From NCBI GenBank assembly GCA_005881175.1, contig VBEN01000008.1:1-53699 (forward strand): 53,699 bases of DNA, in the 5' to 3' direction. The position numbers and the translations under genes are program-made. The notes below the pieces were generated by a model. The model saw nothing but the letters and a program-made list of their open reading frames with translations, was not told the DNA's origin and did not search any database. Source of the DNA: Chloroflexota bacterium. GTDB taxonomy: Bacteria > Chloroflexota > Dormibacteria > CF-121. Positions 31,317 through 47,556 of the stretch are shown here, piece by piece; position 1 is the first letter of the stretch, and every line of letters begins with the position of its first letter.

Positions 31317-31628
31317 CTACGCCACCATCAACCGCGGCAAAAGCAGTTGCTGCACGTCGAAGAGGACGTCCAGCACCCGTACCGGGTCACGGGTGACGTT
31401 GCGGTTGAGCGCCCGAAGCAACTTACGGCTGAGGGGCCGGACAAAGCGGGTGATCTCGTCCATCAGCGGGGCGGGGACGGCCCCGCGCTGGTTCTCGATG
31501 ATGTCTTCGATCGAGAGAAGGAAGTCGTCCACACGCTTTACGTCCGCCCGACGGCGGGCCTCCTGGTCACGCCGGTCGGCCGCCGCCTGGAACTCACGAT
31601 GGATCTCGTCGATCGCGTCGCTCAGCAT
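31317..31628 (-). CDS. hypothetical helical protein, apparent paralog of 13301-13642
   Basis: GGGAG RBS; TTGACA upstream; typical codon use. Confidence 0.8.
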   Translation of the reverse strand: MLSDAIDEIHREFQAAADRRDQEARRRADVKRVDDFLLSIEDIIENQRGAVPAPLMDEITRFVRPLSRKLLRALNRNVTRDPVRVLDVLFDVQQLLLPRLMVA

Positions 31629-31745
31629 CTACCTGCTCCCTTCACTAACGCCAATGTACCGGGCTGACGATTCACGAAAGGTGATACATGCACTGTTACA
31701 TAGTCCACAAGGCCTGTCAAGCATTTTCACTCTGCGTGCTCAGGT

Positions 31746-32093
31746 TCAGGCCGTCAGACCGTTCCCAGACACCTCCTGCAGCGTGTCGAGCTCGCGGACC
31801 TGGTTGAGATCCAGGCCCTGGTTGCCCAGCGATTGCAACAGATGCAGCACGTATTTCACGCCCGCCAGATTCACTCCCTTCTGACGAGTCAGGAACTGAA
31901 TCACGCGAACCCGTCGGATATCGTCTTCGGAGTAGCGCCGTCGGTTCGTAGCCGTTCGCTGTGGCTTGATCAGATTCTCGCTCTCGTAAATCATCAGGGT
32001 GCGGGGATGGAGGTTGAGGATCTCGCTGGCGATGCTGGGGGTGAAAACCGCCCGCCCGGGGGCAATCGCCGGCATCCTCTTTCGTTTTCCCAT
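31746..32093 (-). CDS. HspR-like MerR-family regulator (copy 1)
   Basis: SIASEIL..HPRTLMIYE, RT.TNRRRYS, GVNLAGV; TTGCGC-N17-TATCGT upstream. Confidence 0.9.
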   Translation of the reverse strand: MGKRKRMPAIAPGRAVFTPSIASEILNLHPRTLMIYESENLIKPQRTATNRRRYSEDDIRRVRVIQFLTRQKGVNLAGVKYVLHLLQSLGNQGLDLNQVRELDTLQEVSGNGLTA

Positions 32094-32233
32094 ATCACCC
32101 CAGCGCGGAGCATCCCCCGACCCCGCATTGCCGTAACTTTATATTCACGATATCACTTATTGCTGACTGGCGCAAGCCTTTAATTTCCCGACTCCAGATG
32201 TCTGGGGCATGCCGCGTACAGTAAGACGAAGCG

Positions 32234-33796
32234 ATGCTGGCGATCGAGCAGTACACCCGCCGCCTTCTCAAGGACTTTCATCCGATCGTGGCGGCCAATC
32301 GGCCGCCGGTCGACCTGGCGCCCGACGCCGGCGACCGGGAACGCTTCGTGCGGGGATCCGGCGGGCTCGTCACGGGACTCTCAGGCCTTGCGCAGGCCAC
32401 GGGAGCGGTGTGGGTGGCATCGGCGCGAGATGGATTCGAAGCCGAGCTCGACCCGGGGAGCGGCGGAGAACCGATGGTGGTTGAAACGGCGGATGGCGCC
32501 CGCTTCCAGGTGAGTTGGGTCAATCCGCCGCGACTCGCCTACGACCTGTACTACAACACCATTGCCAACCCGCTGCTCTGGTTCGTTCAGCACTACCTCT
32601 GGAACCTGGCGGAAGCGCCGGTGCTCGATGACAGCACGCACCGGGCCTGGAATGAGGGCTACCGGCGGGTCAACCAGCTGTTTGCCCAGCAGGTGGTGCG
32701 CGAAGCGCGGCGTGGTCGCAAGCGGCCGCTCGTGCTTTCGCACGATTACCACCTCTACCTGGTTCCAAGGTTGGTGCGCCGTGAGCTCGCCGATGCCGTG
32801 CTACAGCACTTCGTCCACATCCCCTGGCCCACACCGCAATACTGGAAGGTGTTGCCGCAATACATGCGGGACGAGATCATGGACGGCCTGCTGGCGGCCG
32901 ACATCATCGGTTTGCAGACCCATTCGGATGTGCGCAACTTCTTACTCACCTGCGAAGAGAACATGGGCCTCCCGGTCGATTTTCGGCAACAGACCGCCTT
33001 CTATCGCGGCCGGACCGTATGGGTGCGTCGCTATCCCATCTCGATTGACGTCCGAGAGTTCGAGCGCAGCGCCGCCAGCCCTGGAGTCGAGCGCGCGGAG
33101 CGGGAGATCCTTCGCTGGCGCCCGGAACAGCTGATCTACCGGGTCGACCGCATGGATCTCTCGAAAAACATCGTGCGCGGGTTCTACGCCTACGAGCGCC
33201 TACTTCAAGCCCACGCCGAATGGCGGCGGCGGATCATCTTTTGGGCGATGCTGCAAAAGACGCGCCAGAATGTGCCGGAGTACCGGGAATACGCCCGCCA
33301 GGTGCTCCAGGTGGCCAGGGTGATCAATAGCCGTCTAGCGTCCGATGATTGGCAGCCCATTCGCCTCGAGCTTCGCGAGGATATGAACCGGGCGGTGGCC
33401 GGTTACAAGCAGTTCGATGTACTTCTCGTCAATCCCCTGTACGACGGCATGAACCTGGTGGCGAAAGAGGGAATCACCGTGAACCGCCGGGGCGGTGCCT
33501 TGGTGCTCTCAGAGAATGCCGGTACGCATGAGGAGCTTGGAGAATGGGCCATCACGATTAATCCATTTGATGTCGACGCAACCGCGCAGGCGCTGCAGCA
33601 TGCCCTCCTGATGGACCCGGTCGAACGCCACGCCCGGGCCGAGAAAATGCGCGCGGTCGTGCAACAGAATGATGTCGCCCGCTGGATCTCGGCGCAGTTG
33701 CAAGACATCCGGGACCTGGTGGAGCCGCTGGCGGCGCGGCGCCCGGAGGTCGCGCGGGAGGAGACGCTCTCGATCGGACGCGAAGGTACGCTCTAG
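32234..33796 (+). CDS. otsA: trehalose-6-phosphate synthase (GT20)
   Basis: GGLV, HDYHL, HIPWP, RVDRMDLSKNI, DGMNLVAKE, LSENAG; acceptor specificity not verified. Confidence 0.88.
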   Translation: MLAIEQYTRRLLKDFHPIVAANRPPVDLAPDAGDRERFVRGSGGLVTGLSGLAQATGAVWVASARDGFEAELDPGSGGEPMVVETADGARFQVSWVNPPRLAYDLYYNTIANPLLWFVQHYLWNLAEAPVLDDSTHRAWNEGYRRVNQLFAQQVVREARRGRKRPLVLSHDYHLYLVPRLVRRELADAVLQHFVHIPWPTPQYWKVLPQYMRDEIMDGLLAADIIGLQTHSDVRNFLLTCEENMGLPVDFRQQTAFYRGRTVWVRRYPISIDVREFERSAASPGVERAEREILRWRPEQLIYRVDRMDLSKNIVRGFYAYERLLQAHAEWRRRIIFWAMLQKTRQNVPEYREYARQVLQVARVINSRLASDDWQPIRLELREDMNRAVAGYKQFDVLLVNPLYDGMNLVAKEGITVNRRGGALVLSENAGTHEELGEWAITINPFDVDATAQALQHALLMDPVERHARAEKMRAVVQQNDVARWISAQLQDIRDLVEPLAARRPEVAREETLSIGREGTL

Positions 33797-33799
33797 CGC

Positions 33800-34102
33800 T
33801 CAGGCCCAGAGATGGCGGGCGCCGGCAAGCTCCGGAAATTCGTTCTCGGGGATCTGCAGGCGGCTTTGCACGGCGGCCTCCATCAGAGAAAAGATGACTT
33901 TGACACCGGCGAGATTGATGCCGTGCACCGTGGTCAGTTCGCGAATCAGTCGGATCCGCTCGATGTCGCGGCGCGAGTAACGCCGGCGCTGCGTCGGGGT
34001 CCGCTCGGGGGCGATCAGATTCTCGCTTTCGTAGACGAAAAGCGTCCGGGGCTCGATGTCGAACATATCGGAGACTTCGCTGGACTTATGCGGCATTGCC
34101 AA
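33800..34102 (-). CDS. HspR-like MerR-family regulator (copy 2, most divergent)
   Basis: TTG with GGAGG RBS and TATAAT; EPRTLFVYE, RRRYS, GINLAGV. Confidence 0.87.
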   Translation of the reverse strand: MAMPHKSSEVSDMFDIEPRTLFVYESENLIAPERTPTQRRRYSRRDIERIRLIRELTTVHGINLAGVKVIFSLMEAAVQSRLQIPENEFPELAGARHLWA

Positions 34103-34349
34103 GTGTCGCCCTCCCGGGTGGAAAGCTGTAAACAATTATAGCCCACATGTCAGGATTTGTGATAAACACCGGAAGCTACCGTCGTTTGCGGGAATTGTGG
34201 CGCCACTGTGCGCAGCGTGACAGATCGGAAAACCCTACCCATTGGTTGTGCGGGGGCGTATCACCTTAGCCCTCGTGACGCTCGCTTGAACACGTTCGAG
34301 CTTGCCGTTAGTGTCACGGCCGGACGGTGCCACCGCCGGTCCTTGCAGC

Positions 34350-35480
34350 ATGTCGCGCATCTTACGTCAAGTCACGCTTTTTGGAGGGAGGGTTGTGCTG
34401 GGAGTGATGCTTTTCGCTCTCCTCACGCCCCCGTTTGGCTTGCGCGCCTACCTCGAGGCTCGAGCTCAGGAGCAAGCACAGGCTAGCCACGTGATCGTCA
34501 GCTTCGGCCGGCCGGCTGCCGCGATCGTCCCGTTGCCGGTAACGGCGCGGCCGTTCGCCCAGGCGCCGCGCTCACCCCTCGACGGGGTCAAGGGCAAGGG
34601 CGCCTGGCTGATGATCTTCAACGGTGATTGGAATGATCCCGATTCCGATCGGGCCGCGGCCATCGTCGATGCGGCCGTCCGGGCTGACCTCAGCCACCTG
34701 TATATAAGGATCGCCGACTCGAGATACCATTTTTACGGTACCTCGGCCCTCCAGGACCTTCTACCCATCGCTCATCAGCACGGGCTCAACATCATCGGTT
34801 GGATCGAACCGATGCTGGATGATTCGAACGCCGACACCGCCGATGCGCTGGCGGCTGCTCAGTTCGAAGAGCAGGGCCAGCGACTGGATGGGCTTGCGCT
34901 GACGATCGAGGGTAACAGCACATCCGACCCCAATGTGGGCCAGTATCTAGCGGGAATCCGCGGCGGCATCCAGGGCATGAATGGCCTCGGGGATCGCTAC
35001 CTGCTGATCGCCAGCACGTTGCCCACCCCCTACGACCACCCGGGCTATGCGTACGCGACCATGTCGCGCTATTGTCAGGTCTTTGCCCCGATGGTGTACT
35101 GGCGAGCCACCGGCCTGCCCCAGTACAGCGGGGTGGGCGGTGCCCGCGCCTACGTTGCCCAGGTATTCCAACAGTTCCGTGACCCAGGGGTCAACCCGTT
35201 CAAGCGCCCGCTGACCATCACGGCGCAAGCCTATGATGCCGCACCCGAGTACGGCACCCCGGGCGCCCCACCCGGCGATGAGATCGTCACCTCGATGGAT
35301 GAGACACGCGCCCAGGGCGGGATCAGCTGGTCTTATTACCGGCTGGCGAATGCGGATAATGGCGTGACCGGGGAAGAGCAACAGGCGATCACCGGCTACC
35401 CGTTCTGGCAGCGCTTTCGTACGGGAGGCATCGCGGGCACGGCGCTGATCGCGCTACCTGACCAACCGGTCGCGTATTAA
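34350..35480 (+). CDS. exported or membrane-anchored putative glycoside hydrolase-like TIM-barrel protein
   Basis: N-terminal TM; GKGAW, HLYIRIAD, GLNIIGW, FAPMVYW, QAYD, GISWS; family not certain. Confidence 0.6.
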   Translation: MSRILRQVTLFGGRVVLGVMLFALLTPPFGLRAYLEARAQEQAQASHVIVSFGRPAAAIVPLPVTARPFAQAPRSPLDGVKGKGAWLMIFNGDWNDPDSDRAAAIVDAAVRADLSHLYIRIADSRYHFYGTSALQDLLPIAHQHGLNIIGWIEPMLDDSNADTADALAAAQFEEQGQRLDGLALTIEGNSTSDPNVGQYLAGIRGGIQGMNGLGDRYLLIASTLPTPYDHPGYAYATMSRYCQVFAPMVYWRATGLPQYSGVGGARAYVAQVFQQFRDPGVNPFKRPLTITAQAYDAAPEYGTPGAPPGDEIVTSMDETRAQGGISWSYYRLANADNGVTGEEQQAITGYPFWQRFRTGGIAGTALIALPDQPVAY

Positions 35481-35500
35481 GGAGAGGGGTTGAGAAACCA

Positions 35501-37465
35501 ATGAAAAGGCTTGTTCGCCGTTTTTCTGCCTTATCGAGGCTGCGCCGCAAATGGATGCTCGTGCCCACGTTCGTGGCGCTCGCCCTTCTCGTTACCGGTG
35601 GTCTGTGGTACCTAGGACACGCCGGAGCAAATTCCGTGTGGAACCAGCCAAGTGTTCCGATCAGCGATGTGCTCGATCGCGTCGACCGCGGCGAGATCCT
35701 GGGCGCCAGCATCAGCGGTCAGCGCATCCTCTTAACCGACCAGGCCGGCCATCAATCGTGGACCATCGAAAAAGAATCGTCCATGGGATCGACCGAGCAG
35801 TACCTGCGGAATCACAACGTCAAAGTCGCGGTTCAGTCGACCGACGAAACCTCGTTCGCCACCATGCTGCCGAACCTGCTCGGACTGCTTGTCCTGCTGG
35901 CGTTGCTGTTCATCTTGCTACGACGGTCCAACCTCCTGGGCAGTCCGATGGGGGCCATGACGAAACATCTCGCCGACGCCCGTCTGGGCGACGGCGAGCA
36001 GGTGACCTTCTCCCAGGTGGTCGGTGTCGATGAAGCCAAGCACGAGCTGGAAGAGGTTGTCGAATTCCTCAAAGCTCCGAGCAATTTCGGGAAGCTGGGC
36101 GCTCGCATGCCGCGCGGCATCCTGCTCGTCGGTCCTCCGGGGACCGGAAAGACGCTTCTCTCTCGGGCGGTGGCCGGCGAGGCCAAGGTCCCCTATTTCT
36201 CGTTAAGCGGTTCGGACTTCGTCGAGATGTTCGTCGGCGTGGGCGCCGCCCGCGTCCGTGACCTCTTTCGGCACGCGAAGAAGAACTCCCCGTGCCTGGT
36301 GTTCCTTGACGAGATCGACGCACTCGGGCGCAAGCGTGGCGGTGCGCAGATCCGCACCAATGAGGAGCGTGAGCAAACCCTCAACCAGTTGCTCGTGGAG
36401 ATGGACGGGTTCAATACCGACTCTGCTGTCGTCGTGATCGCGGCCACAAACCGTCCGGACGTCCTTGATCCGGCGCTGCTGCGCTCCGGCCGCTTCGATC
36501 GGCGGGTGGCGATCGACGCGCCCGACCTCAATGGCCGGCGCGCGATCCTGAGCCTCTATGCTGCCCAGAAGCCGCTGGCCGAGAACATCGACCTCGACGT
36601 GGTCGCCAGGCAGACGCCGGGCTTCACCGGTGCTGACCTTGCCAACCTCCTGAACGAGGCGGCCATCCTCGCCGCCCGGAACAAGAAAGTCGCGATTGGC
36701 AGGCAGGAGCTGGACGAGGCCAGCCTTCGCGTGATGGCCGGACCCGAGAAGCGCAGCCGGATGATCACGCCGGAGGAGAAGTCGATCATCGCCTACCATG
36801 AGGTCGGCCACGCGTTGGTGATGAAATCGATTGCGAAGAGCGACCCGGTGCACAAGGTCTCGGTGGTATCGCGCGGGCAGGCCCTGGGCGTCACCATCCA
36901 GCTCCCGTTGAAGGACCGTTACCTGACCTCGAAGTCTGAGCTGATGACCCGGATGGCGGCGGCGATGGGTGGCCGCGCGGCTGAAGAGATCATCTTCGGC
37001 GATGTCACCACCGGCGCGAAGCAGGACATCGAGCAGGCCACTAGCATCGCGCGCCAGATGGTCTGCGAGTTTGGAATGAGCGAGCGGCTCGGCCTGGTGA
37101 CCTTGCACCGCCGCGGCGAGGGTGACAGCTTGTTCTTCTCCGAGTTGACCGCGGCCGATGTCGACGCGGAAGTGAAGGCGCTGACCGACACGGCGTATCG
37201 CCACGCGTACGATATCTGCCAGACTCGTCGGTCCACGCTGGTGCGAATCGCCGAGCACCTACAGATCGTGGAAACGATCGATGGCGATGAGCTCGACCGC
37301 CTGCTGTTGGAAGAGGCAATGCCTCCGGTCACGGTCATGTTGCCGAAAGTCGAGGAGTCGGCTGTCGCCGGGCGGATCGCGGCCGCCGAAGCTAATGACT
37401 GGGAGGACTCGTCCGCTGCTTCGGCTGTCGAGAGCGATGCCGAGCCGCCGCTTGCCGCGAGCTAG
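35501..37465 (+). CDS. ftsH: ATP-dependent zinc metalloprotease FtsH
   Basis: Two TM segments, [24 protein letters not shown] motif, HEVGH. Confidence 0.96.
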
Positions 37466-37824
37466 ATAATCTCTTCGTACAGGTCGTAGACCTGTTTGAG
37501 GTCGTCTGGCGGTTTCACTCCGCCACGCTTGAGCGACTCCAGCAGCATCAGGATGTACTTGACGCCGGCCAGGTTGACGCCCTTCTCTCGGGTCAGCTGC
37601 TGGATGACCTGCAGCTTGCGCACGTTGCGTTGCGAGTAGCGCCGCCGGTTGGTGGCCGTGCGGTACGGCTCGATCAGGCCGAGGTCCTCGTACATCATCA
37701 AGGTGCGAGGATGGGTCTCGAGGATCTCTGACGCAACGCTGATGGTGTAGAGGGGCTTGTCGAGATCAAACGCCCCGGAGATGCGCGGGTCGCGATTCGG
37801 GACCAACGCTATTCCTTGACCCAA
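37462..37824 (-). CDS. HspR-like MerR-family regulator (copy 3; start TTG 37824 or 37806)
   Basis: LDKPLYTISVASEILETHPRTLMMYE, GVNLAGV. Confidence 0.92.
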   Translation of the reverse strand: MGQGIALVPNRDPRISGAFDLDKPLYTISVASEILETHPRTLMMYEDLGLIEPYRTATNRRRYSQRNVRKLQVIQQLTREKGVNLAGVKYILMLLESLKRGGVKPPDDLKQVYDLYEEII

Positions 37825-38198
37825 TCCTGTACGCCGCGGCTGAGGCTTGCGGGCGTGGTCTCGGACTTGATCAGATAATCGAGCGCGCCTAGCTTGAGAC
37901 CGCGATCGACCAACTCCTTTTCTCCGTAATTGGAGAGGATGATCACCGGGATGTTCTTGGTCACGCTATCCGAGCGCAGATTTTCCAGGACGGCAAACCC
38001 ATCCATCTTGGGAAGCCGGATGTCGAGAAACACGATGTCCGGCACCTGATTCTTGGCATGGTCGAGGCCCTCTTCGCCGGACTTGGCTACGGTAACCCGG
38101 TAGCCGTCGAGCTCGAGCTTGAGCTTGTACATCTCGGCGACCGCCGGGTCATCTTCGATGAAGAGGACGTTAACGTCCTCATCGACCACGTCACTCAT
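37809..38198 (-). CDS. single-domain response regulator (RR1)
   Basis: AAGGAGG RBS; IEDD, FLDIRLPKMDG, ILSN, YLIK. Confidence 0.93.
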   Translation of the reverse strand: MSDVVDEDVNVLFIEDDPAVAEMYKLKLELDGYRVTVAKSGEEGLDHAKNQVPDIVFLDIRLPKMDGFAVLENLRSDSVTKNIPVIILSNYGEKELVDRGLKLGALDYLIKSETTPASLSRGVQDWVKE

Positions 38199-39060: not shown

Positions 39061-41358
39061 TCAGCCGTTCGCCGGCTTGCACTTGTCCGGTGGGCCAGGC
39101 GGGCAGATCGTCGGTGCCGGAGATGGGGCAGGTGATGGCGCCGGTGCCGGCGGTGGCTTCGGCGCGTTGATGACACAGTAGACGCCATCGACGGTGATCT
39201 GCGAATAACTCAGGTTGTAGGGGCTGTAGTTTGCCGGGAGCTTGCACTGGGGCCACGGCTGCGCCAGCGTTTTCGGCAGGTTTTCGGTGCCGGTCAGGAA
39301 GTAACTTTGCCCAATCTGGTGAATCCCGGCCGGAACGGCGCTGTACCACTCATCCGGTTTGCCGGCGAGTGCCTGCGTCATGAACTTGTGCCAGATGGGA
39401 GCCGCGCCGACGATTCCAGTCGAGTTGTGGCTCAGCGGCTTGTTGTCCGGGTTTCCCACCCAGACGGCGGTCGCCAGGCTGGGGGTGAAACCGACCGTCC
39501 AATTATCTTTGAAATCATTGGTGGTGCCGGTCTTGGCAGCGACGTGACGCCCAGCCAGCGTCAGGTCGCCCCCACAGCCGAAACTCATGCAACGGTTGCG
39601 GTCGTCGGACATGATGGAGGCGATGATGAAGGCGACGCCGGGGTCGACAGCGCGGTACTCCACCGTTTTTGGATCGTAGGTGTAGACCGCGCGACCCAGC
39701 CCGTCCTTGATACTCAGAATCGGGGCTTCGCGGTGCCGGACGCCGAGCGTCGCGAGGGTTGAGGCCGCGGTCGCCATATCGGCCAACCGCACCGGATAGG
39801 CACCCAGCGTCAGGCTCATGCCATAGGTGTCAACGGAGCGCGGCTTATCGCACGGCTCCCCTAAGCAGGTGAGGCCGAGACGATGCGCCATGTCGACGAC
39901 TGCTGGAATACCGGTACGAAGCTCGACTTTCAAGGCCGGGATGTTGAGTGAGTTGCCCATCACCATCTTCAGCGGCAGCGTGCCGTGGAAGCGCCGATCG
40001 TAGTTTTGGGGGATGTACTTGGCGAATCCGCTGGCGTAGCCCGGACCATCGCCACCGATGGGAAACACCATCGGGGCGTCCTGGACTGGGCTCAGCATGT
40101 TCACCTTCCGGCTCTCGATCGCCGCGGTATAGGTGAAGATCTTGAAGCTCGAGCCAGGCGGGCGGGCGACATCGTACGCGAAGTTGAACTGGCCGCCGGG
40201 TCGGTTGTAGTCGACGCCGCCGACCATGGCGAGAACCTGGCCGGTTTTGGGGTCCATGCTGACCAGGGCCGCATCATGAAAGTTGTAGAAGCTGCCCTTC
40301 TGCGCCACCTGGTCGCGGACCACCTTCTCCGCCATGTGCTGGAGATTCAGGTCGAGGCTGGTGTAGACGCGATAGCCCCGCTGATCGCTGGAATTGATGC
40401 CGTGTTCCTTGGCGAGCGTCTTCAAGACATAGTCGACGAAGTAGGGCGCCTCGAATTTGGTGACAGGCGAGAAGACCTGTAGCTTGTCGGCGTAGGCGGA
40501 CTGCGCCTGTGCCGCCGTAATGAACTTCTCGCCGACCATGGCGGCGAGCACCTGGGCCTGGCGCTGCTTGGCCGACGCGAAATTGACGACGGGGTTATAG
40601 CGCGTCGGTGCCTGAGGGAGCCCGGCCAGCATGGCGGCCTGCGCCAGCGAGACGTCATGGGCGTTCGTCTGGAAATAGCTGCGAGCCGCCGCCTCGATGC
40701 CGTAGGTCTGACTGCCATAGAAGATGGTATTGAGATACATTTCCAGGATCTGATTCTTGCTGTACTCGCGGTTCAGCTCGATGGCTAGGATCGCTTCCTT
40801 CATCTTGCGCTGGATGTCGTTGGGCGCATTGCTGCCGATGTAGACCTGCTTGATCAACTGCTGGCTGATCGTGCTGCCGCCCTGCTGAATGTGATGGTGC
40901 TGGTAGTTCGCGATTGCGGCACGAAGAATGCCGCCAACATCGATGCCGCTGTTGCTGTAGAAGGTCCGGTCCTCGGTAGCGAGGGTCGCCTTCACCACCC
41001 ATGGCGAGACGTAGTTAAGGGGTACCACGATCCGGTGGTTGCCCTCTTTGCCGACGTCGGCGAGCAGTTGGCCATGCCGGTCGTAGATCAGGGTGTCCTG
41101 TTGCAGCTTGTCCGAGGACAGGCCGCTGACGGCGGGCAGGGGCCCGACGGCCTGGGCGGTGATGGCGGGGATGCCCATCAACGGCACCAGCAGCACGACC
41201 ATCAGGCCAAGGATCACGGTGCGCCGGAAGTCGGCGCGGCTGCGCTTCCGCCACCGGTCCACGTTGCGCTGCGTGCGCCGACGAGCCGCTAGGCGCTCAG
41301 AAACCCGGAGATCCCCGAAAGCAGGAGCCACAGAGAGAGGAGCATAACCGCTCCCCAC
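39061..41358 (-). CDS. class A penicillin-binding protein (transglycosylase plus transpeptidase); start uncertain
   Basis: EDRTF, GGSTISQQL, RKMKE; SSFK, SLN, KTG motifs. Confidence 0.95.
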   Translation of the reverse strand: MGSGYAPLSVAPAFGDLRVSERLAARRRTQRNVDRWRKRSRADFRRTVILGLMVVLLVPLMGIPAITAQAVGPLPAVSGLSSDKLQQDTLIYDRHGQLLADVGKEGNHRIVVPLNYVSPWVVKATLATEDRTFYSNSGIDVGGILRAAIANYQHHHIQQGGSTISQQLIKQVYIGSNAPNDIQRKMKEAILAIELNREYSKNQILEMYLNTIFYGSQTYGIEAAARSYFQTNAHDVSLAQAAMLAGLPQAPTRYNPVVNFASAKQRQAQVLAAMVGEKFITAAQAQSAYADKLQVFSPVTKFEAPYFVDYVLKTLAKEHGINSSDQRGYRVYTSLDLNLQHMAEKVVRDQVAQKGSFYNFHDAALVSMDPKTGQVLAMVGGVDYNRPGGQFNFAYDVARPPGSSFKIFTYTAAIESRKVNMLSPVQDAPMVFPIGGDGPGYASGFAKYIPQNYDRRFHGTLPLKMVMGNSLNIPALKVELRTGIPAVVDMAHRLGLTCLGEPCDKPRSVDTYGMSLTLGAYPVRLADMATAASTLATLGVRHREAPILSIKDGLGRAVYTYDPKTVEYRAVDPGVAFIIASIMSDDRNRCMSFGCGGDLTLAGRHVAAKTGTTNDFKDNWTVGFTPSLATAVWVGNPDNKPLSHNSTGIVGAAPIWHKFMTQALAGKPDEWYSAVPAGIHQIGQSYFLTGTENLPKTLAQPWPQCKLPANYSPYNLSYSQITVDGVYCVINAPKPPPAPAPSPAPSPAPTICPPGPPDKCKPANG

Positions 41359-41483
41359 CCTGCTCCGCTCGCCAGCGCCCGAGCCGTCGACCGGCGCTGA
41401 CGCCGGATCTGCCGTCGGCGAGCGGCGAGGGACGAGAGGCCGTCGGCGGTTACTGAGTGGGTCGCATGCCGGATGTATATCAA
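41289..41483 (-). CDS. possible small membrane protein upstream of the PBP
   Basis: TTG with AGGGG RBS and TACAAT upstream; Arg-rich segment then a C-terminal TM. Confidence 0.45.
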   Translation of the reverse strand: MIYIRHATHSVTADGLSSLAARRRQIRRQRRSTARALASGAGWGAVMLLSLWLLLSGISGFLSA

Positions 41484-41676
41484 TTCAGGCCCCTAAATCG
41501 TACCGTTACTGCTCTACGGAAATCTGACTTAGCCATTGTAACCTAAGCGGAGCTCCTCTGTACGGAATAGGCCTGACCGTGTCGCCGGCTGCCTCTGTCC
41601 AACGGCGCGGCCCGGACTTTGGTTACGGCCGTGGTGAAGCTGTCGCGAGGGGACGCCTACTTATAATGGGGCAGCG

Positions 41677-42222
41677 TTGTCGAGCCAGGTATCGCCCGGG
41701 AGTGGCACCGTGTTCTGCCGCTTGTGCGGCAAGCCGATCGAGTCGGACGCCCGGTTCTGTCGGTTTTGTGGGAAGTCTCAGGCAGAGCCGGCCGGACGGC
41801 CCGCGGCATCGACCCCGAGCCGCCTCGGGCGCACCGGCTTCAACCTGGAAGACCGCCTTCAGCAGCTGTTTCCACGGCATCCGCTCCAGGACGAGTTCAT
41901 GCATATCGGCAGCATCGCGGCCTTCTTCATGGCGCTGATCGGCTTCGTGCTCGGCTTCTTTACATCCGCGATGGGCAGCCCATGGCTGAGCGTGAACTTC
42001 CTGCTGGGGTCGGTTGCCCTGCTCCTCTACCTGATTTTGCGCCAGTCAACCCTGAGCCAGGTTCGACCCCATGCGGACGGCCCAACTGCGACGGAGGCCG
42101 GGACCGCGAGTGGCCAGCAGGCCGGACGGCGGGGGGCGGGGGCATCTGAGGTTTCCAGCGAAGCCGCGACCGCCGAGTCTTCGCCACCGGGCGCCACCCG
42201 CCCACCAGCCACCCCGCGATAA
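41677..42222 (+). CDS. zinc-ribbon membrane protein
   Basis: FCRLCG...FCRFCG followed by two TM segments; TATAAT upstream. Confidence 0.8.
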   Translation: MSSQVSPGSGTVFCRLCGKPIESDARFCRFCGKSQAEPAGRPAASTPSRLGRTGFNLEDRLQQLFPRHPLQDEFMHIGSIAAFFMALIGFVLGFFTSAMGSPWLSVNFLLGSVALLLYLILRQSTLSQVRPHADGPTATEAGTASGQQAGRRGAGASEVSSEAATAESSPPGATRPPATPR

Positions 42223-42246
42223 AAAAACCGGCCCGAAGGCCGGTTT
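42221..42246. terminator. bidirectional intrinsic terminator
   Basis: A7-CCGGCC-CGAA-GGCCGG-TTT between convergent genes. Confidence 0.85.
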
Positions 42247-42263
42247 GCGCGATGTCCGGTACG

Positions 42264-42452
42264 CTACAGTCCCTTCTCGCCTTCGACCGGCTCGCCCGTG
42301 GCGGGCTCGCCTTCGGTCATCTCGCGTCCGGCGCCTTCGACGTCACCTTTCACCTTCTGCGCCTTACCTTCCCACTCCATCTTCTTGTCGCCGCTCAGCT
42401 TCCCGCCGGTATCCTTCAGTTCGCCTTCCGCCTTGTCGCCAAGCTCGCCCAC
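42264..42452 (-). CDS. CsbD-family stress protein
   Basis: GGAGG RBS and GTG; DKAEG.LK...GKLSGDKKME.EGKAQKVKG. Confidence 0.88.
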   Translation of the reverse strand: MGELGDKAEGELKDTGGKLSGDKKMEWEGKAQKVKGDVEGAGREMTEGEPATGEPVEGEKGL

Positions 42453-42689
42453 GCTGCACCTCCCTAGATTTAACGCCGACGATGGCGCTGTTAGCAAACA
42501 TGATAACAGCGCACTGAGGTTCTGTCTATATCATGAGCCCCCGGGTGGGCCTTCAACTGAGTTCACATCTATTTACGAATCCTACGTTGAGGCCGCTCAC
42601 CATGCGCCCCTATACTCTCAGGGCGATTTCGCCGTCCCAATTCACGCGGCGGACCGTCAGGACCGGAAGCAAGAGAACTGGAGGAACCT

Positions 42690-43037
42690 ATGGTAACCGC
42701 CGTCAAGCGCGAGACCCGACGCGACACGAACATCTCCCTCGACAAGCCGATCTACACCATCAGCGTGGCATCGGAGATCCTGGAGACCCATCCGCGGACC
42801 CTGATGATGTACGAGCACCTCGGCTTGGTCGTGCCCAAGCGGACATCGACGAACCGGCGGCGCTTCTCGCAGCGCGACGTCATGAAGCTGCAGACGATCC
42901 AGAAGCTCACCCGGCAGCACTCCGTCAACCTGGCGGGGGTCCGTTACATCATGAAACTGCTGAAGCTGCTTTACGAAAACCAGCTGACGGCACCGGTCGA
43001 GCTTCGCGACATCGACGTATCGCAGCTCGACGTCTAA
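42690..43037 (+). CDS. HspR-like MerR-family regulator (copy 4)
   Basis: GGAGG RBS; LDKPIYTISVASEILETHPRTLMMYE; TTGAGG-N18-TATACT upstream. Confidence 0.93.
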   Translation: MVTAVKRETRRDTNISLDKPIYTISVASEILETHPRTLMMYEHLGLVVPKRTSTNRRRFSQRDVMKLQTIQKLTRQHSVNLAGVRYIMKLLKLLYENQLTAPVELRDIDVSQLDV

Positions 43038-43143
43038 ACGCGACGGATCGCCTGGGCGGCCGCTGAAATTTTTGCGGATCGTTATGCGCAGGGTTCCCGG
43101 TTTACCGACAGTCGGCGCGGGACAATTACTGACTGTGCTCCTG

Positions 43144-43172
43144 TTGACAAGACTCGTGGGCCTTCCTATAAT
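43144..43172 (+). promoter_or_regulatory. perfect-consensus sigma70 promoter
   Basis: TTGACA (43144-43149), 17-nt spacer, TATAAT (43167-43172). Confidence 0.9.
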
Positions 43173-43177
43173 CCGCA

Positions 43178-43232
43178 TTAGTTCTCTTGCCCCCCTCTTC
43201 GGGCCCTCCCTTCGGAGGGCCTTAAACTTTTC
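43178..43232 (+). ncRNA. candidate short C-rich RNA or structured leader
   Basis: CUUGCCCCCCUCUUC, then GGCCCTCC/GGAGGGCC hairpin and TTAAACTTTT, right after the consensus promoter. Confidence 0.4.
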
Positions 43233-43348
43233 TGGGGGATTCCCGACGGTTGGGCGTATGCCTTGGAGGCATCGGGCCGTATCACTTTCCACAAGGGCGG
43301 CGAGATTCACCGACTTCGTCTATACTGCTTCGCGCCAAGGGGAGTGTT

Positions 43349-43777
43349 ATGGAAAGTAAGACGCGCCGCGGCGCCGGAGCGAGCCGGGCGACGCAGACGG
43401 ATGAGGATCTGGTCGATGTTCTCCTCGTGGAAGACGATCCCTCCGTTCTGGAGATGTACCGCCTCAAGCTGGAGCTCGATGGTTATCGCGTCAACACCGC
43501 GCTCGATGGCGAGGAAGGCCTCAAGAAAGCGGGAGACCTGACGCCCGACATCATCTTCCTCGATATCCGCCTGCCGAAAATGGACGGGCTCGAGGTGTTG
43601 AGAAAATTGCGAGCGCAAGAGAAGACGCGGGATATTCCGGTTATCATCCTTTCTAATTACGATGAAGAGGATCTGGTCGCGCGCGGGTTGCGCCTGGGGG
43701 CCCACGAATACCTCATCAAGGCGCGGACCACGCCGACCAGTCTGTCTGAGGGGATTGAGGATTGGCTAAAGGAGTAA
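43349..43777 (+). CDS. single-domain response regulator (RR2)
   Basis: TATACT at 43321 and GGGAG RBS; VEDD, FLDIRLPKMDG, ILSN, YLIK. Confidence 0.93.
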   Translation: MESKTRRGAGASRATQTDEDLVDVLLVEDDPSVLEMYRLKLELDGYRVNTALDGEEGLKKAGDLTPDIIFLDIRLPKMDGLEVLRKLRAQEKTRDIPVIILSNYDEEDLVARGLRLGAHEYLIKARTTPTSLSEGIEDWLKE

Positions 43778-44109
43778 CCCGTCGCGCACCGTCTGACACG
43801 AGCCTGTCGCTGGATAAGCCGATCTACACCATCAGCGTTGCCTCGGAGATTCTGCAGACCCATCCTCGAACGCTGATGATGTACGAGCACCTGGGCCTGG
43901 TTGTCCCCAAGCGCACGTCCACCAACCGCCGCCGCTTTTCACAGCGCGATATCCGAAAACTCCAGGCGATCCAGACCTTAACGCGCCAGCATGGCGTCAA
44001 CCTCAATGGCGCCCGCTACGTATTGCGTTTGCTCCGAATCCTGGTCGACAACGGGCTACAGGCCCCGGCCGAACTCCGCGACCTCGACGTTAAAGAACTG
44101 GACGTCTAG
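43762..44109 (+). CDS. HspR-like MerR-family regulator (copy 5)
   Basis: Core nearly identical to copy 4; TTG start lies inside the 3' end of RR2. Confidence 0.92.
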   Translation: MAKGVTRRAPSDTSLSLDKPIYTISVASEILQTHPRTLMMYEHLGLVVPKRTSTNRRRFSQRDIRKLQAIQTLTRQHGVNLNGARYVLRLLRILVDNGLQAPAELRDLDVKELDV

Positions 44110-44242: not shown

Positions 44243-44731
44243 ATGAGCTTTCGGCCGGATAGCCCGCTGAATCGGCTCGTCATCCTCTGGCCCGGTGTTC
44301 CGATTGCCGCGTGTGCGCTCGGGTTCGTGCTGGCCGTCGTCGAAGTCTCGGAGACCCACAACGGCTCCTTTGCGGCACTCGCGATTGCGATGGGCTGCGG
44401 TCTGGCATTCAGCGTCGGCCTGCTCTTCCACAGCTTCTTCATCGAGTGGATGGAAGTCACGGTCACTCGCGAAGGCATTGCGGTGCGCCCCGTCGGGCAC
44501 GCCTGGCTCAATCGCCAGCCACGGATAGTCCCCTGGGATCGGGTCCAGGGGACGAACCAGGTCATCACGCGCCAGGGTGGCCATCTCGAAATCGCCGCTG
44601 GCAGCCAGATCCTGAAATTGGATCGCGCCCTGTTCCGTGCCGACACCTTTGCGAACCTATCCGCCGCGCTCGCCCAGCGAACCCGCCAGTGGGGCGCGGC
44701 CAGCTACGACGAGGAACTTGCGGCAGCCTGA
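44243..44731 (+). CDS. membrane protein with two TM segments and a PH-like beta domain
   Basis: Two TM segments, then VTVTREGI...VPWDRV. Confidence 0.7.
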   Translation: MSFRPDSPLNRLVILWPGVPIAACALGFVLAVVEVSETHNGSFAALAIAMGCGLAFSVGLLFHSFFIEWMEVTVTREGIAVRPVGHAWLNRQPRIVPWDRVQGTNQVITRQGGHLEIAAGSQILKLDRALFRADTFANLSAALAQRTRQWGAASYDEELAAA

Positions 44732-44743
44732 GTCGCCGAGTCG

Positions 44744-45364
44744 CTAACTGCGGTAATAGACCTGCGCCGAGTGCACGGCTTGCCGATAGCTGCCATAACG
44801 GGCCTGCAGTGTGGTGCGATCGCCGTACCACGGGTCGTTGATATAGAGGGTGTGGCCACTGTGGCCGGTGATCACCACAAAGTGCATGCCCCCGTACAGC
44901 CGCACCTCGGCGACGACCAGGCGACCGGCATCGAGTTGAGCCTCCACCATGGATTGCGGGGGCAGGTCTTCGATGTCCTGGTCGTCGGTGCGTAGCTGGG
45001 ACACCATGCCGGGAACGTGCAGCCACTTCCAGCGCACAGATCCCTGGGTCGCGGCTGCGGCCTGACGCCAGAGCAGGAGGTCATTCTCGAGGTAGCCCCC
45101 ATTTGCGGTCAGCCAGCGGTTGAGCATTCCCGGATTGGTGGAGTAACCGTAGGCCGCCGTCACCATCGTGACCGCGGTCAGCGCGCAGCCGGCTGAGCCG
45201 ATCGTGTCCACTCGATCGCTGCCCAGCGCGTCGCGAGACCATTGCAGCGAGCGCTGGCTGAAAGTTGGCACCGGCGCGCCGGCAAATGCTCCTAGGCTCC
45301 CCGCCGCCCACGCTACGATGGCCAGCACGCTGGCCGCCAGCGCCCGGCGCCGAGCCCTCTCCAC
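44744..45364 (-). CDS. secreted C39-like cysteine peptidase
   Basis: Signal peptide; FSQ...W, GCALTA (Cys), HFVV (His), INDP (Asp). Confidence 0.88.
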   Translation of the reverse strand: MERARRRALAASVLAIVAWAAGSLGAFAGAPVPTFSQRSLQWSRDALGSDRVDTIGSAGCALTAVTMVTAAYGYSTNPGMLNRWLTANGGYLENDLLLWRQAAAATQGSVRWKWLHVPGMVSQLRTDDQDIEDLPPQSMVEAQLDAGRLVVAEVRLYGGMHFVVITGHSGHTLYINDPWYGDRTTLQARYGSYRQAVHSAQVYYRS

Positions 45365-45448
45365 GGCGCCATCTTACGGTCGAGGTTGGGTCAAGTCCAG
45401 CGGCGGCGATGTCGGCTTTGGATCGTTACCGGTTGGTGACAGTCTGGG

Positions 45449-45769
45449 TCAGCGAAGCAGGCTCTTCAGGTCGCCGGCGTGGCCGCCCAGCGCCAGGCGG
45501 GCATCGAGAACATCGTCGGGACTGATGGGAACGCCCAGCTCCTCGGTGGGCTCGTCACGCACGTCAATCACGGGCGTGGCAGTCTCGGTCTCAGCCGCGA
45601 CGGCGACGGCGATCAGCCGGGCGTCCTGGCAATGGGCACACGTCACCTTGACCAGCGACTGCTCATCATGGTGCGTCACCATTTCGAGCTGGCAGTCGGC
45701 CAGGCTCTGCCCGCACCTGGGGCACTGGAAGCGACCGGCCTGACGCCGGAGAATATCAAGCACGTCCAC
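45449..45769 (-). CDS. zinc-ribbon hypothetical protein
   Basis: CPRC and CAHC pairs; PISPDDVLD motif. Confidence 0.78.
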   Translation of the reverse strand: MDVLDILRRQAGRFQCPRCGQSLADCQLEMVTHHDEQSLVKVTCAHCQDARLIAVAVAAETETATPVIDVRDEPTEELGVPISPDDVLDARLALGGHAGDLKSLLR

Positions 45770-45912
45770 GTTTTTTTCCTACCCGGAAGCTGGCGGAGCA
45801 AACCAGCAAAGCTGATAGCGGTGGCACGGTGTAAGCGCCTAATGGCTGAGCCTCAGTTGATGCAAGACCGATCGTTTGCCGGTCCGGTGGCACCCAGCGA
45901 TACTCGCGCCGG

Positions 45913-47556
45913 ATGCGCCTTCCCGTCTTTGTGGGCGCCGGGGCGATGGCCACCGGAATCCTGTTGCTGGGCGGCCTCCTGGCAACCGAGCTGAACCCCA
46001 TGCCGGTGGTCAATGTCGATGCCATGGAGATCGACGGCGCCTCTGTGCTATCGGTACCCCTGCCTGAGGTGTCGCCCCGGCCACAGCTGGTGATCAAGGT
46101 CAGCGGGCCGCTTCGGCCTGGAGATTGGCACCTCACGATCGATGGCCGGCCGCTCGCCGTTTCCGCGGTTTCGCAGGCGGCCATTTTGCGGGTGATGATC
46201 CCCGGGCCCCTGCCGCTCGGCAGCCGTCACACCGTCCAACTGTCAGCGGGGGCAATGCACATTCGCGCCGCCTTTCAGATCGTGCCTCCCCTGAGTGCCA
46301 GCATCACCACGCGTCTCTATCAGCTGCAGGCCGACGCTCAGATCAGCGTGGCGGCGACTATCCGCTTTTCGCGCGCGGTGATGAACCACGCGCAGGCTGA
46401 GCAGCACCTGCACATGACCGGAAACCCGATTTTGACCTGGCGCGACCACCAGACGCTTGATGCGATTTCCACCGGGTTTGCCCTGTCCGGCCACGCGGCC
46501 GTCGCGCTTGATGCGGGCGTGCAGGCCGCCGATGGCACGTTCAGCCGGCAACCCGCCGCCGCTGCACTCTCGATCCCATCGACCATCACCCAGGTGGCGC
46601 CCGGCCACATGGTGCAGATGTATTACGTCAACACCGACGATGGCCGGGCCGCGCTGTTGTCGCATCTGAAGCAGATCGATGTGCTCAGCCCCGCCTGGTA
46701 CGACGCCAATGCGAATGGCAGCATCACGGGCTATGCGCGGCGCGATGTGATCGATGCGGCCCACGCGAACGGGATTGCCATCATTCCGCTGGTAGTCAAT
46801 AAAGATGTTGACCCCGGCGTCGGGCACGCCATCCTCGCCGATCCAGACCGGCGCGCGACGCTGGCCCGCAATCTCGTCAACGAGGCCAAGACTTACGGCT
46901 ACGCTGGCTTCCAGCTCGACTTCGAGCAGATTCCCTGGACCGACCGCGACCTGCTCACGGCGCTGGTCCAGGACTGTGCAAGTGCCTTCCATGCCGCCGG
47001 TCTCAACCTCTCGATCGCGGTGATCCCTCGGCTTCCGAGTGATGAGACAGCGACCGGCTGGTTGCTCAAATACTTCCACCAATGGTCGGGCGCCTATGAC
47101 TTCGCCGCCCTGGCGAAGGCGGCCGACTTTCTGTCCTTCATGACCTACGACGAGCACAACGGTGTCACCGAGGCGGGCGCCGTCGCTGGAACGCCGTGGA
47201 TGCGCCAGGCGCTCGAGTTCTCGATGCAGGGCGTGCCCCCGGAGAAGGCAACCCTCGGCCTGCCAACCTACTATCACGACTGGACGGGCGTCGGGTACCT
47301 GACGTCGAGCTCCTACGCCGATGCGATGATGCTGGCCCAGCAGCATGGGGCGACCCCGGTTTTTGATCCAGTCGAGGATGAGATGCACTTCGGTTACGAC
47401 GCCTATGGGGTGCATCACGAGCTCTGGATTCAGAGCACCGAAACGCTGCGCCGAAAACTGCCGCTGATGTACGAGTTCGGCCTCAAGGGCATCAGTGTCT
47501 GGCGGCTGGGCTTCGAAGATCCTTCTTTCTGGAATCTGATTCCGCCGCGGCGATAG
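45913..47556 (+). CDS. GH18 glycoside hydrolase (YaaH/YdhD-like) with N-terminal Ig-like domains
   Basis: LSPAWY, GFQLDFE, AYDF, MTYDEH, GISVWRLGFED. Confidence 0.88.
   Translation: MRLPVFVGAGAMATGILLLGGLLATELNPMPVVNVDAMEIDGASVLSVPLPEVSPRPQLVIKVSGPLRPGDWHLTIDGRPLAVSAVSQAAILRVMIPGPLPLGSRHTVQLSAGAMHIRAAFQIVPPLSASITTRLYQLQADAQISVAATIRFSRAVMNHAQAEQHLHMTGNPILTWRDHQTLDAISTGFALSGHAAVALDAGVQAADGTFSRQPAAAALSIPSTITQVAPGHMVQMYYVNTDDGRAALLSHLKQIDVLSPAWYDANANGSITGYARRDVIDAAHANGIAIIPLVVNKDVDPGVGHAILADPDRRATLARNLVNEAKTYGYAGFQLDFEQIPWTDRDLLTALVQDCASAFHAAGLNLSIAVIPRLPSDETATGWLLKYFHQWSGAYDFAALAKAADFLSFMTYDEHNGVTEAGAVAGTPWMRQALEFSMQGVPPEKATLGLPTYYHDWTGVGYLTSSSYADAMMLAQQHGATPVFDPVEDEMHFGYDAYGVHHELWIQSTETLRRKLPLMYEFGLKGISVWRLGFEDPSFWNLIPPRR

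Follow-up and report, generated by a model that had tools for sequence, protein, structure and literature searches.

Five HspR-like MerR genes, two translationally coupled receivers and conserved candidate operators in a gene block of Dormibacteria

The stretch of DNA analysed here, which we call the window, is 53,699 nucleotides (nt) of contig VBEN01000008.1 (GenBank assembly GCA_005881175.1), part of a 2.88-Mb metagenome-assembled genome, 89% complete, of an uncultured member of the Dormibacteria (Chloroflexota). Dormibacteria are abundant uncultured soil bacteria which are thought to persist by dormancy. Genes were called by codon-position GC, and 50 picked open-reading frames (ORFs) of the window were scanned against Pfam and NCBIfam. 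Our subject is the block between 31317 and 47556, in which five short genes for MerR-type DNA-binding proteins, merR_A to merR_E, occupy 12,364 bp (31746–44109), each product matching Pfam MerR_1 (PF13411) with 57.3–61.8 bits against a cut-off of 21.6. Two genes for stand-alone receivers (RR1 and RR2, 66% identical) are interleaved with them, and no HisKA or HATPase domain was found in the 50 scanned ORFs. Five such MerR genes in 12.4 kb, two closely similar receivers and no histidine kinase had been proposed in an earlier reading made from the DNA letters alone (the original prediction) and all three were found, although the second receiver is RR2 at 43349–43777 and not the first ORF of the block at 31317–31628 (hyp103). 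The clustering of the MerR genes is not chance, since five of the seven MerR_1 matches in the genome, and all five of its matches to the NCBIfam HspR model, fall inside these 12.4 kb. The genes of the block are listed below (lengths in amino acids, aa).

31317–31628, minus strand: hyp103, a conserved helical protein of 103 aa without Pfam or NCBIfam match, not a receiver
31746–32093, minus strand: merR_A, divergent from otsA, MerR_1 59 bits, HspR model NF047375 82.8 bits, only in the window's family
32234–33796, plus strand: otsA, trehalose-6-phosphate synthase (GT20; Glyco_transf_20, 377 bits)
33800–34135, minus strand: merR_B, the most divergent paralog, recognition helix EPRTLFVYE, only in the window's family
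34302–35480, plus strand: hyp392, secreted or membrane-anchored, family not assigned, ftsH directly after it, box TATCACCTT at 34259–34267
35501–37465, plus strand: ftsH, AAA and M41 protease domains (Pfam)
37462–37824, minus strand: merR_C, the class-wide C-type paralog, C-terminal tail ..PP.DL..VY..Y.EII
37809–38198, minus strand: RR1, stand-alone receiver of 129 aa, Response_reg 91 bits
38384–39021, plus strand: ytxH1 and ytxH2, divergent from RR1-merR_C, YtxH 32.9 bits (cut-off 37.5) and 55 bits
39061–41358, minus strand: class A penicillin-binding protein (PBP), Transgly 205 bits, Transpeptidase 69 bits
41677–42222, plus strand: zinc-ribbon membrane protein (Pfam scan)
42264–42497, minus strand: CsbD-like small protein, CsbD 29.5 bits, below the cut-off of 40
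42690–43037, plus strand: merR_D, a D/E-type paralog, tail ..ELRDIDVSQLDV, without a receiver of its own
43349–43777, plus strand: RR2, stand-alone receiver of 142 aa, found by tblastn at 43397–43774, best start ATG 43349
43762–44109, plus strand: merR_E, a D/E-type paralog, coupled to RR2
44243–47556, tail of the block: hyp162 (plus), C39-like peptidase (Peptidase_C39_2, minus), zinc-ribbon protein (minus) and GH18 protein (plus), collinear in loci of the window's family

Between 28 and 49 kb these genes are preceded by two DUF3048 proteins and followed by an FGGY kinase (minus strand), with merR_A and otsA, merR_B and hyp392-ftsH, merR_C-RR1 and ytxH1-ytxH2, and the CsbD-like gene and merR_D each facing away from one another.

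For all five MerR proteins the best NCBIfam model was HspR, NF047375 (A 82.8, B 69.6, C 92.1, D 91.2 and E 88.0 bits), but none of these matches, the only five in the genome, reached its equivalog cut-off of 105 bits. Among themselves the paralogs range from 72% identity (D-E) through 65% (C-E), 62% (C-D) and 60% (A-C) to 41–51% for B against the others. A profile of the five proteins, run on 151 sampled genomes of the phylum (a tally including the unpublished G065), scored 140–196 bits in Dormibacteria and at most 100 bits, mostly in one copy, in other classes. Of 18 loci fetched from those other classes, 16 had dnaK, grpE, dnaJ, clpB or hsp20 beside the gene and most showed the classical order dnaK-grpE-dnaJ-hspR-clpB, whereas no chaperone gene was present in 101 Dormibacteria loci (1.36 Mb). 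In a quick IQ-TREE maximum-likelihood tree (70 rows, 120 columns, midpoint root, near-duplicate rows from L085, L004 and L089 omitted), 18 chaperone-linked Chloroflexota HspR proteins separated from 52 Dormibacteria proteins with a support of 98 in the Shimodaira–Hasegawa-like approximate likelihood ratio test (SH-aLRT), the only support computed; the Dormibacteria side held two groups spread over the class, the C type and the D/E type (99 for the latter), and a group of A and B confined to the window's family. In C, D and E (the helices of these three differing at one position, E or Q) the recognition helix is HPRTLMMYE, in A it is HPRTLMIYE and in B EPRTLFVYE; of the 13 core copies read from chaperone operons, 11 have HPQTLRHYE or something close to it (HQQ.., HEQ..), L113 and L117 diverging further. 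The five paralogs probably descend from Chloroflexota HspR, and on these comparisons they appear to be HspR-derived yet not chaperone HspR, an HspR lineage rewired away from chaperones. This agrees with the original prediction, which had called them HspR-like and set them apart from the chaperone-linked regulator: they form their own clade below the model cut-off. The one exception to the low scores in other classes is a 2.4-kb contig assigned to a different Chloroflexota family (L114, G045:C164), which carries a Dormibacteria C-type gene, 66% identical, for which binning contamination is more likely than gene transfer.

The regulators proved to be widespread in the class and their expansion confined to one family. 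We searched 121 class genomes that were at least 85% complete, accepting profile matches at E ≤ 1e-30. In the window's family (f1) all 24 genomes had matches, with five copies in 21, six in two and four in one; matches were also found in 31 of 33 genomes of f2 and 44 of 45 of f3 (1–3 copies each), in all seven of f4 (1–2 copies) and in none of the 12 of f49, where the HspR model met in five genomes with nothing but weak matches (at most 50 bits) of a generic MerR kind. Seven of the 121 genomes are unpublished (G215, G224, G262, G180, G232, G246 and G191), without which the counts are 23/23 for f1, 29/31 for f2 and 40/41 for f3; the unpublished G018 was also counted in one tally. The pair of receiver and HspR-like protein occurs in four of five sampled families, with the five-copy expansion restricted to f1.

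Gene order, on which the original prediction had staked its reading, is kept across f1 and in its core across the class. The same 22 genes stand in the same order in 23 of 25 f1-like loci whose flanks reach merR_A and merR_E, and in all six long f1 stretches (five g1 genomes and one g13) at 60–97% protein identity; in the one rearrangement (L029), ytxH2-ytxH1/RR1-merR_C has been turned round together. Among the non-redundant genes outside f1, those of the D/E type have a PBP1A homolog within 1.5 kb in 11 of 16 cases and otsA within 3.5 kb also in 11 of 16, and orthologs of hyp103 (35–45% identity) adjoin OtsA in other-family loci L086 and L096. C-type genes stand beside rsfS in 34 of 42 cases, in a row of obg-nadD-rsfS, and beside a PBP gene in seven of 42. 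From these separate settings it would follow that f1 merged two older contexts and gained A, B and a second receiver pair. In many other Dormibacteria (L040–L062, e.g. L040:5018–8360) the receiver and C-type MerR pair comes directly after obg, nadD and rsfS, the last encoding the ribosome silencing factor, and in a sub-clade of L063 and its kin the MerR gene follows rsfS with no receiver. In f4 loci (L056, L061, L077 and kin) an inverted repeat follows a TATAAA box upstream of the receiver gene, its arms changing together between lineages (GACGAAA/TTTCGTC in some, GGTGAAA/TTTCACC in others), which could be a leader hairpin or a co-evolving operator.

The original prediction had taken the receivers as loose orphans; each is instead translationally coupled to one MerR paralog, and this became the main mechanistic clue. 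The stop of RR1 overlaps the longest merR_C start by 16 nt, and an overlap of equal length joins the stop of RR2 to the start of merR_E. In 57 distinct pairs of orthologs, receiver and MerR gene mostly overlap or are at most ~10 nt apart, the largest gap being 56 nt (L044). In f1-like loci, whose counts are, like the others given here, partly redundant, a receiver lies directly upstream of C in 43 of 43 and of E in 32 of 32, and never upstream of A (0/34), B (0/40) or D (0/33); in the other families this holds for 32 of 46 C-type and three of 20 D/E-type genes. Residues D16, D17, D59, S89 and K111 are invariant in 29 aligned receiver sequences, and with these phospho-acceptor residues intact both receivers should be phosphorylatable. 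Neither RR1 nor RR2 has an output domain, the receiver being all there is, unlike classical fusions of receiver and DNA-binding domain. A literature search for a pair of receiver and HspR-like protein found no description. Elsewhere in the window there are a further stand-alone receiver at 16628–16996 (minus strand), outside the MerR block, and a 663-aa protein at 23626–25617 (plus strand) with a C-terminal receiver and ~530 N-terminal residues without Pfam match.

We predicted a complex of MerR_C and RR1 from our own 29-row alignment, which scored 0.41 (runs 0.40, 0.41 and 0.42) with 0.00 for the best of three controls; the runs agreed in at least 73% of contacts, and the predicted local distance difference test score (pLDDT) of the partner was at least 87. 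In a calibration which is roughly applicable, our own alignments having been used, 58 of 80 solved complexes came up to the mark, as did two of 110 mismatched pairs, and scores up to 0.60 held only seven of the 80 solved complexes and both of the passing mismatches. The support is weak and we counted this prediction neither for nor against binding.

An AlphaFold2 model of MerR_C, made from an alignment of 29 sequences (pLDDT 86.9), shows a winged helix-turn-helix, a 17-residue helix (85–101), a Pro-Pro break and a further helix (107–117), with no long coiled coil. An N-terminal extension of ~22 residues with the invariant motif FDLDKP.YTIS was modelled as coil and strand, pLDDT being below 50 for residues 1–15. 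The closest solved relatives were the DNA complexes of GlnR and TnrA (PDB 4r4e, 4r22 and 7tea), with a profile E of 9.7e-13, and in Foldseek 42% identity at a root-mean-square deviation of 1.0–1.4 Å. Against the NCBIfam TnrA model (NF053740) the paralogs reach only 24.2–26.6 bits, the cut-off being 140. GlnR and TnrA are described as a MerR offshoot without coiled coil, in which the C-terminal tail serves as a protein-binding sensor (PMC4335299), and feedback-inhibited glutamine synthetase binds the GlnR tail and joins two monomers into a DNA-binding dimer (PMC9249791).

Phylogenetic footprinting of the intergenic regions brought out a half-site, T(A/G)TCA(C) with its reverse complement TGA(Y)A, repeated at 7-bp spacers (N7; 12 bp centre to centre). 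The occurrences proposed as operators at the locus are:

31682–31698: dyad TGATA-N7-TGTTA upstream of hyp103, overlapping box TATCACCTT at 31678–31686 (minus strand)
32139–32155: dyad TTATA-N7-TATCA in the divergent merR_A/otsA intergenic region
34136–34164: array of three half-sites, TTATA-N7-TGTCA-N7-TGATA, across the merR_B promoter
38230–38246: dyad CGACA-N7-TGTCA in the divergent RR1/ytxH1 intergenic region, overlapping box TGTCACCTT at 38242–38250

The arrangement TGAYA-N7-TRTCA (up to one mismatch) occurs six times in the window where 1.65 are expected, a count reached in none of 100 shuffles; four of the six are intergenic, beside merR_A, merR_B and RR1. Two of the four in-locus sites (31682 and 34136) were found only after the pattern had been fixed. 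Of the GlnR-like arrangement the window has three occurrences, not a significant number, the one at the merR_B promoter being perfect. Over the whole genome N7 is, for both arrangements, the most frequent spacing of those from N5 to N9, the everted form having 42 intergenic sites at N7 and 18–27 at the other spacings (8 perfect intergenic sites against 1–2).

The dyad is kept in 36 of 36 orthologous merR_A/otsA regions (28 distinct sequences), in 33 of 35 of hyp103 (25 distinct) and in 8 of 11 of RR1/ytxH, the merR_B/hyp392 array in 33–35 of 35 (30 distinct), and in all of these the arms are kept while the spacers vary. It is kept in five of 34 merR_D/RR2 regions and in none of 25 merR_E/hyp162 regions. 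We rejected a candidate operator before the CsbD-like gene (42489–42505, between csbD and merR_D), kept in only three of 25 regions in the GlnR-like form and two of 25 in the everted form. A search for shared conserved 6-mers and long inverted repeats yielded little beyond the palindrome TGGTTAGTATAACCA at the RR1 promoter, maybe only an extended -10 element, and was dropped.

The conserved dyads appear to link the block to stress genes elsewhere in the genome. The three genomic sites of exact TGTCA-N7-TGATA all fall between genes: one at the merR_B promoter, one before mem166, which encodes a 166-aa membrane protein, and one before a gene for a KGG-repeat 'stress-induced' protein (Pfam 75.8 bits), the last two genes being adjacent at C63:4376–5391 (L129, L148) and unlinked to the block. 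Each of these two genes is preceded by TTGACA, a spacer and TGTCA-N7-TGATA around the -10 box, an arrangement conserved across five f1 genera; in f1 loci the dyad frames the -10 box of mem166, its distance unchanging, in 16 of 18, and it precedes the KGG gene in 11 of 18. Everted dyads that match perfectly are further found ahead of genes for Ku, hemerythrin and BrkB-like, SnoaL-like and Nramp proteins, the Ku dyad being kept in one of two close (76%) Ku orthologs examined. We infer that the paralogs bind these dyads: they are the candidate binders because the sites lie in the regulators' own promoters, because the dyads have a GlnR-type layout, and because the five are the genome's only strong HspR-model matches, with GlnR and TnrA as their closest solved relatives.

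A 9-nt box, TRTCACYTT, was at one time considered as a separate motif (five in the window, 0.49 expected) and then abandoned, the pattern being post hoc; it is now read as the half-site plus flanking bases. The genome has 22 copies, eight of them intergenic, and the other neighbours (Nramp and a CvpA-trypsin-like protease) are uninformative. The fifth copy in the window, TATCACTTT at 2457–2465 (plus strand), stands 9 nt before a 70-aa ORF without family match, between genes for a patatin-like protein and a DAO oxidoreductase.

Contigs from RNA libraries of four soil runs (three studies) covered RR1 in all four runs, and also merR_D, RR2-merR_E, ytxH, merR_A, merR_B, hyp103 and parts of the PBP gene and hyp392; none lay over 45742–48000.

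Most neighbours named in the original prediction were recovered by the Pfam scans, namely OtsA, FtsH, the class A PBP, YtxH2, the zinc-ribbon proteins, Peptidase_C39_2 and GH18, the exceptions being YtxH1 and CsbD, which fell below their cut-offs. The 'GH-like barrel' proposed for hyp392 had Atlas feature leads of 0.88–0.89 to GH18/DUF4015 clusters and no Pfam match, and hyp392 is possibly a glycoside-hydrolase-like barrel on those leads only. The GH18 protein showed no LysM domain in the Pfam scan, and the 'YaaH-type' label given to it is for that reason not shown. An Rfam scan found nothing in 31317–47556. Between merR_D and RR2, at 43144–43235 (plus strand), there is a consensus sigma-70 promoter (TTGACA-17-TATAAT), and ~30 nt further on come a C-rich stretch conserved throughout, a GC hairpin of 9 bp, likewise conserved, and a run rich in T. 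This element ahead of RR2 could be a short RNA (~55 nt) or an attenuator; taken whole, its fold does not surpass that of shuffled sequences (z = -0.03). The two proteins to the left of the block (28018–31229, minus strand) are tandem paralogs with Big_5 and DUF3048 N- and C-terminal domains, collinear with the block in all f1 loci that reach there. Further away the window holds a cobalamin riboswitch (12996–13177, minus strand, 117 bits), with minus-strand genes downstream for a squalene-hopene-cyclase-like repeat protein, CbiQ, an ABC ATPase and an ECF-type component.

Taken together, we suggest that the five regulators are probably a new switch of the stress response, which falls short of a proven dormancy programme. 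The fuller reading, that the block encodes HspR-derived repressors of GlnR-like build which are controlled by receivers and govern a regulon for general stress or desiccation, we regard as having an even chance of being right. The regulators would have left the chaperone operon and come to form a lineage-specific regulatory island of Dormibacteria. In build, all five would be akin to GlnR/TnrA, with a winged helix-turn-helix and after it a short conserved C-terminal helix. They would act as operator-binding proteins, most likely repressors, on dyads or short arrays of T(A/G)TCA(C)/TGA(Y)A which overlap the promoters of merR_A/otsA, hyp103, merR_B/hyp392-ftsH, RR1-merR_C/ytxH, mem166 and the KGG gene. 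Signals would enter through the two single-domain receivers, which are coupled to C and E; the receiver would bind its partner MerR and switch its dimerisation or DNA binding, in effect a response regulator split into two polypeptides, comparable to the way in which glutamine synthetase works through the tail of GlnR. Under its control would stand trehalose synthesis, FtsH, YtxH, the KGG protein and envelope enzymes. The genes with their ancestry, synteny and copy number, the conserved dyads and the active-site residues of the receivers are observed; the identity of the dyad-binding protein, repression in place of activation, the contact of receiver and MerR and the physiological trigger are all deduced. 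In the B. subtilis general stress response gsiB (which encodes a KGG protein), csbD and ytxH are familiar genes, and the gene content of the block fits a general-stress or desiccation regulon and a resting-cell programme equally well; the original prediction is, overall, partly supported, and neither of the outcomes that it had named as fatal was seen, namely neighbours out of synteny in relatives, or paralogs inside chaperone-linked HspR with HAIR sites at chaperone genes.

Several observations weigh against this interpretation. Of the C-type genes outside f1, 14 of 46 have no upstream receiver, and among longer proteins we found no genuine fusion of receiver and MerR, there being two matches, both likely artefacts: in one RR2 and MerR_E are joined by an apparent frameshift, the identity to RR2 stopping at residue 113 of 142, and the other looks like a PBP gene read through into a MerR gene. 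No conserved dyad stands at merR_D, RR2-merR_E or csbD (5/34, 0/25 and 3/25 orthologous regions), inverted and everted arrangements of the half-site both occur, which a single fixed dimer geometry fails to explain, and the dyads could belong to another regulator. The enrichment in the window is partly circular because the dyad patterns were partly derived from this locus, and TRTCACYTT is not enriched in the loci of other families (three in 625 kb, with ~5 expected from the genome-wide rate). The RNA-library contigs show presence only, carrying neither transcript ends nor levels and allowing for DNA carry-over, and the tree comes from a quick search, made over 120 columns, midpoint-rooted and with no support values but SH-aLRT.

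A bolder mechanism, in which the phosphorylated receiver docks on the MerR C-terminal helix and sets its oligomeric state on TRTCA arrays, following the logic of glutamine synthetase and GlnR but connected to a kinase, with the five f1 paralogs sharing operators as a master switch for trehalose loading, envelope remodelling and proteostasis on the way into the resistant resting state after which the class is named, strikes us as unlikely. Much the same small chance is given to the developmental reading of the original prediction, in which the five paralogs are a cascade or heterodimer code driving a differentiated resting cell and rank with Spo0A or the Whi/Bld systems. The near-identical C, D and E helices could compete for or pair on the same sites, arrays of half-sites spaced by 12 bp would permit mixed occupancy, the dyads reach beyond the block to Ku, hemerythrin and BrkB in this genome (the first of these in one of two close orthologs), and the C-type gene outside f1 keeps its place beside obg-nadD-rsfS in 34 of 42. 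Dormibacteraeota moreover carry trehalose-6-phosphate synthase and are enriched in an ethanol-resistant fraction (10.1101/647651), but the same authors call spore formation unproven, the gene set is that of a general stress response, and most families have only one to three copies. The accessible text of that preprint, which reports trehalose synthase genes and ethanol-resistant cells, contains no regulator and no mention of 'MerR' (10.1101/647651), and our literature searches found no paper joining Dormibacterota with HspR and nothing relevant on HspR paralogs with response regulators.

It is equally doubtful that the cluster is a by-product of tandem duplication without a shared programme, each paralog regulating itself or one neighbour and the unlinked dyads belonging to another factor. 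MerR genes commonly face away from the one gene that they control, D and E, which are 72% identical and form sister groups in the tree, arose by recent duplication, and the dyad is of low information and AT-rich in a GC-rich genome, hence naturally commoner between genes. Such a by-product would not, however, be expected to hold its 22-gene order in 23 of 25 f1-like loci and all six long stretches in spite of 60–97% identity, N7 is specifically enriched over other spacings of the same half-sites, and the same exact dyad is found only at merR_B and mem166/KGG. The distribution of these targets speaks likewise: mem166 is present in 18 of 18 f1 genomes and in two of 42 genomes of other families, and the KGG family in none of five other-family genomes, a near-confinement to f1 which matches that of the f1-only paralogs A and B.

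Somewhat less credible still is that the receivers make no contact with the MerR proteins, being co-transcribed phosphate sinks or CheY-like adaptors while the MerR proteins sense heat, redox state or chaperones directly. In canonical HspR, DnaK acts as co-repressor or modulator, A, B and D as well as the 14 C-type genes mentioned above manage without a receiver of their own, and the complex prediction gave weak support only; tight translational coupling is nonetheless kept in 57 distinct pairs across families, and receiver and MerR gene were duplicated together, their 16-nt overlap included.

For chaperone control in trans we scanned the genome for the HspR-associated inverted repeat (HAIR), which we take to be CTTGAGT-N7-ACTCAAG. 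No site lies within one mismatch in the whole genome, including the locus, and of the nine matches with two mismatches none is beside dnaK, clpB, grpE-dnaJ, groEL or hsp20, the nearest being 17 kb from a second dnaJ; three loci of other Chloroflexota (L108, L110 and L115) do have HAIR-like sites before dnaK. By eye, the upstream regions of dnaK and clpB held neither HAIR nor a TRTCAC half-site. HrcA is present, and the controlling inverted repeat of chaperone expression (CIRCE) precedes groEL and hrcA-grpE-dnaJ. That the paralogs are displaced HspR still repressing dnaK, clpB and other chaperones, with incidental neighbours, is very improbable: HspR is the best model for all five, the single homolog of other Chloroflexota sits in dnaK-grpE-dnaJ-hspR-clpB, dnaK and clpB are close together here without hspR, and FtsH and trehalose are also heat-related, but none of the five proteins reaches the equivalog cut-off, the helix positions which in GlnR/TnrA touch the bases have other residues than in the chaperone-operon copies, HAIR is wanting at the chaperone genes, HrcA and CIRCE are in place, and five fixed copies with class-wide synteny to otsA and PBP argue for a local function. 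At C99:10441–18569 (L128) dnaK and a clpB-like gene are separated only by a gene for a DUF2231 membrane protein, with no grpE, dnaJ or hspR between, and another stand-alone receiver and a zinc-ribbon protein lie 2–3 kb upstream of dnaK. At C224:4020–4576 HrcA matches fall in two overlapping frames, a frameshifted gene or an assembly error, with a CIRCE-like site before and grpE and dnaJ after.

What the locus offers for testing is a family of regulators, present in four of the five families sampled, together with their likely operators and a first list of target genes, and it suggests a new way to join two-component signalling with a MerR-type DNA binder.

How the proposed receiver-controlled repressors relate to known systems is best seen by comparison. 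With HspR they share the N-terminal winged helix-turn-helix and the motifs ..RT.(T/G).RRYS. and GVNLAGV. They depart from it in the recognition helix (Q to R, R to M or F, H to M, I or V), in having ~32 residues after GVNLAGV where chaperone-operon HspR has ~50–60, with ~30 residues bearing a short conserved helix in place of the long C-terminal one, and in occurring in five copies, two of them receiver-coupled, outside the chaperone operon. Streptomyces BldC, with which the original prediction had also compared them, is a small MerR-like protein of 68 residues without coiled coil that forms multimers on repeat arrays (PMC5859096). The arrays of half-sites spaced by 12 bp recall that mode, but the likeness is weak: the paralogs are 111–120 aa long with a conserved C-terminal helix, and only B matches the BldC model (NF033787), with 24.5 bits against a cut-off of 77. 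We know of no receiver partner for BldC. RR1 and RR2 resemble Spo0F, DivK and CheY, single-domain response regulators which act through protein partners, in being receiver only with all phospho-acceptor residues intact, and differ from them in being translationally coupled to a MerR-type DNA-binding protein.

The closest likeness in structure is to GlnR and TnrA. As in these, the modelled MerR_C has a short C-terminal region in place of a coiled coil, for which a role as partner-binding sensor is possible; as to the extra N-terminal helix alpha1' of TnrA/GlnR (11–20 residues, used in dimerisation), no N-terminal helix is predicted in MerR_C, the first 15 residues of which are modelled at low confidence. 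The guanine-reading Arg of GlnR (G4/T5) aligns with the invariant R40 here, while its Arg (T7') and Tyr (T3) are replaced by Met, or by Phe and Val in paralog B (contacts from PMC9249791). The candidate operators share the 17-bp GlnR/TnrA layout of 5-bp arms with TGTNA-like sequence and a 7-bp spacer (PMC4335299 and PMC9249791). To be compared with TGTNA-N7-TNACA are the conserved T(G/A)TCA-N7-TGA(T/C)A dyads at merR_B, mem166 and KGG, and the arms are everted at otsA, hyp103 and ytxH. Unlike those of GlnR/TnrA, the genes beside our dyads are not nitrogen genes, and the neighbouring partner gene, which encodes glutamine synthetase for GlnR/TnrA, here encodes a receiver.

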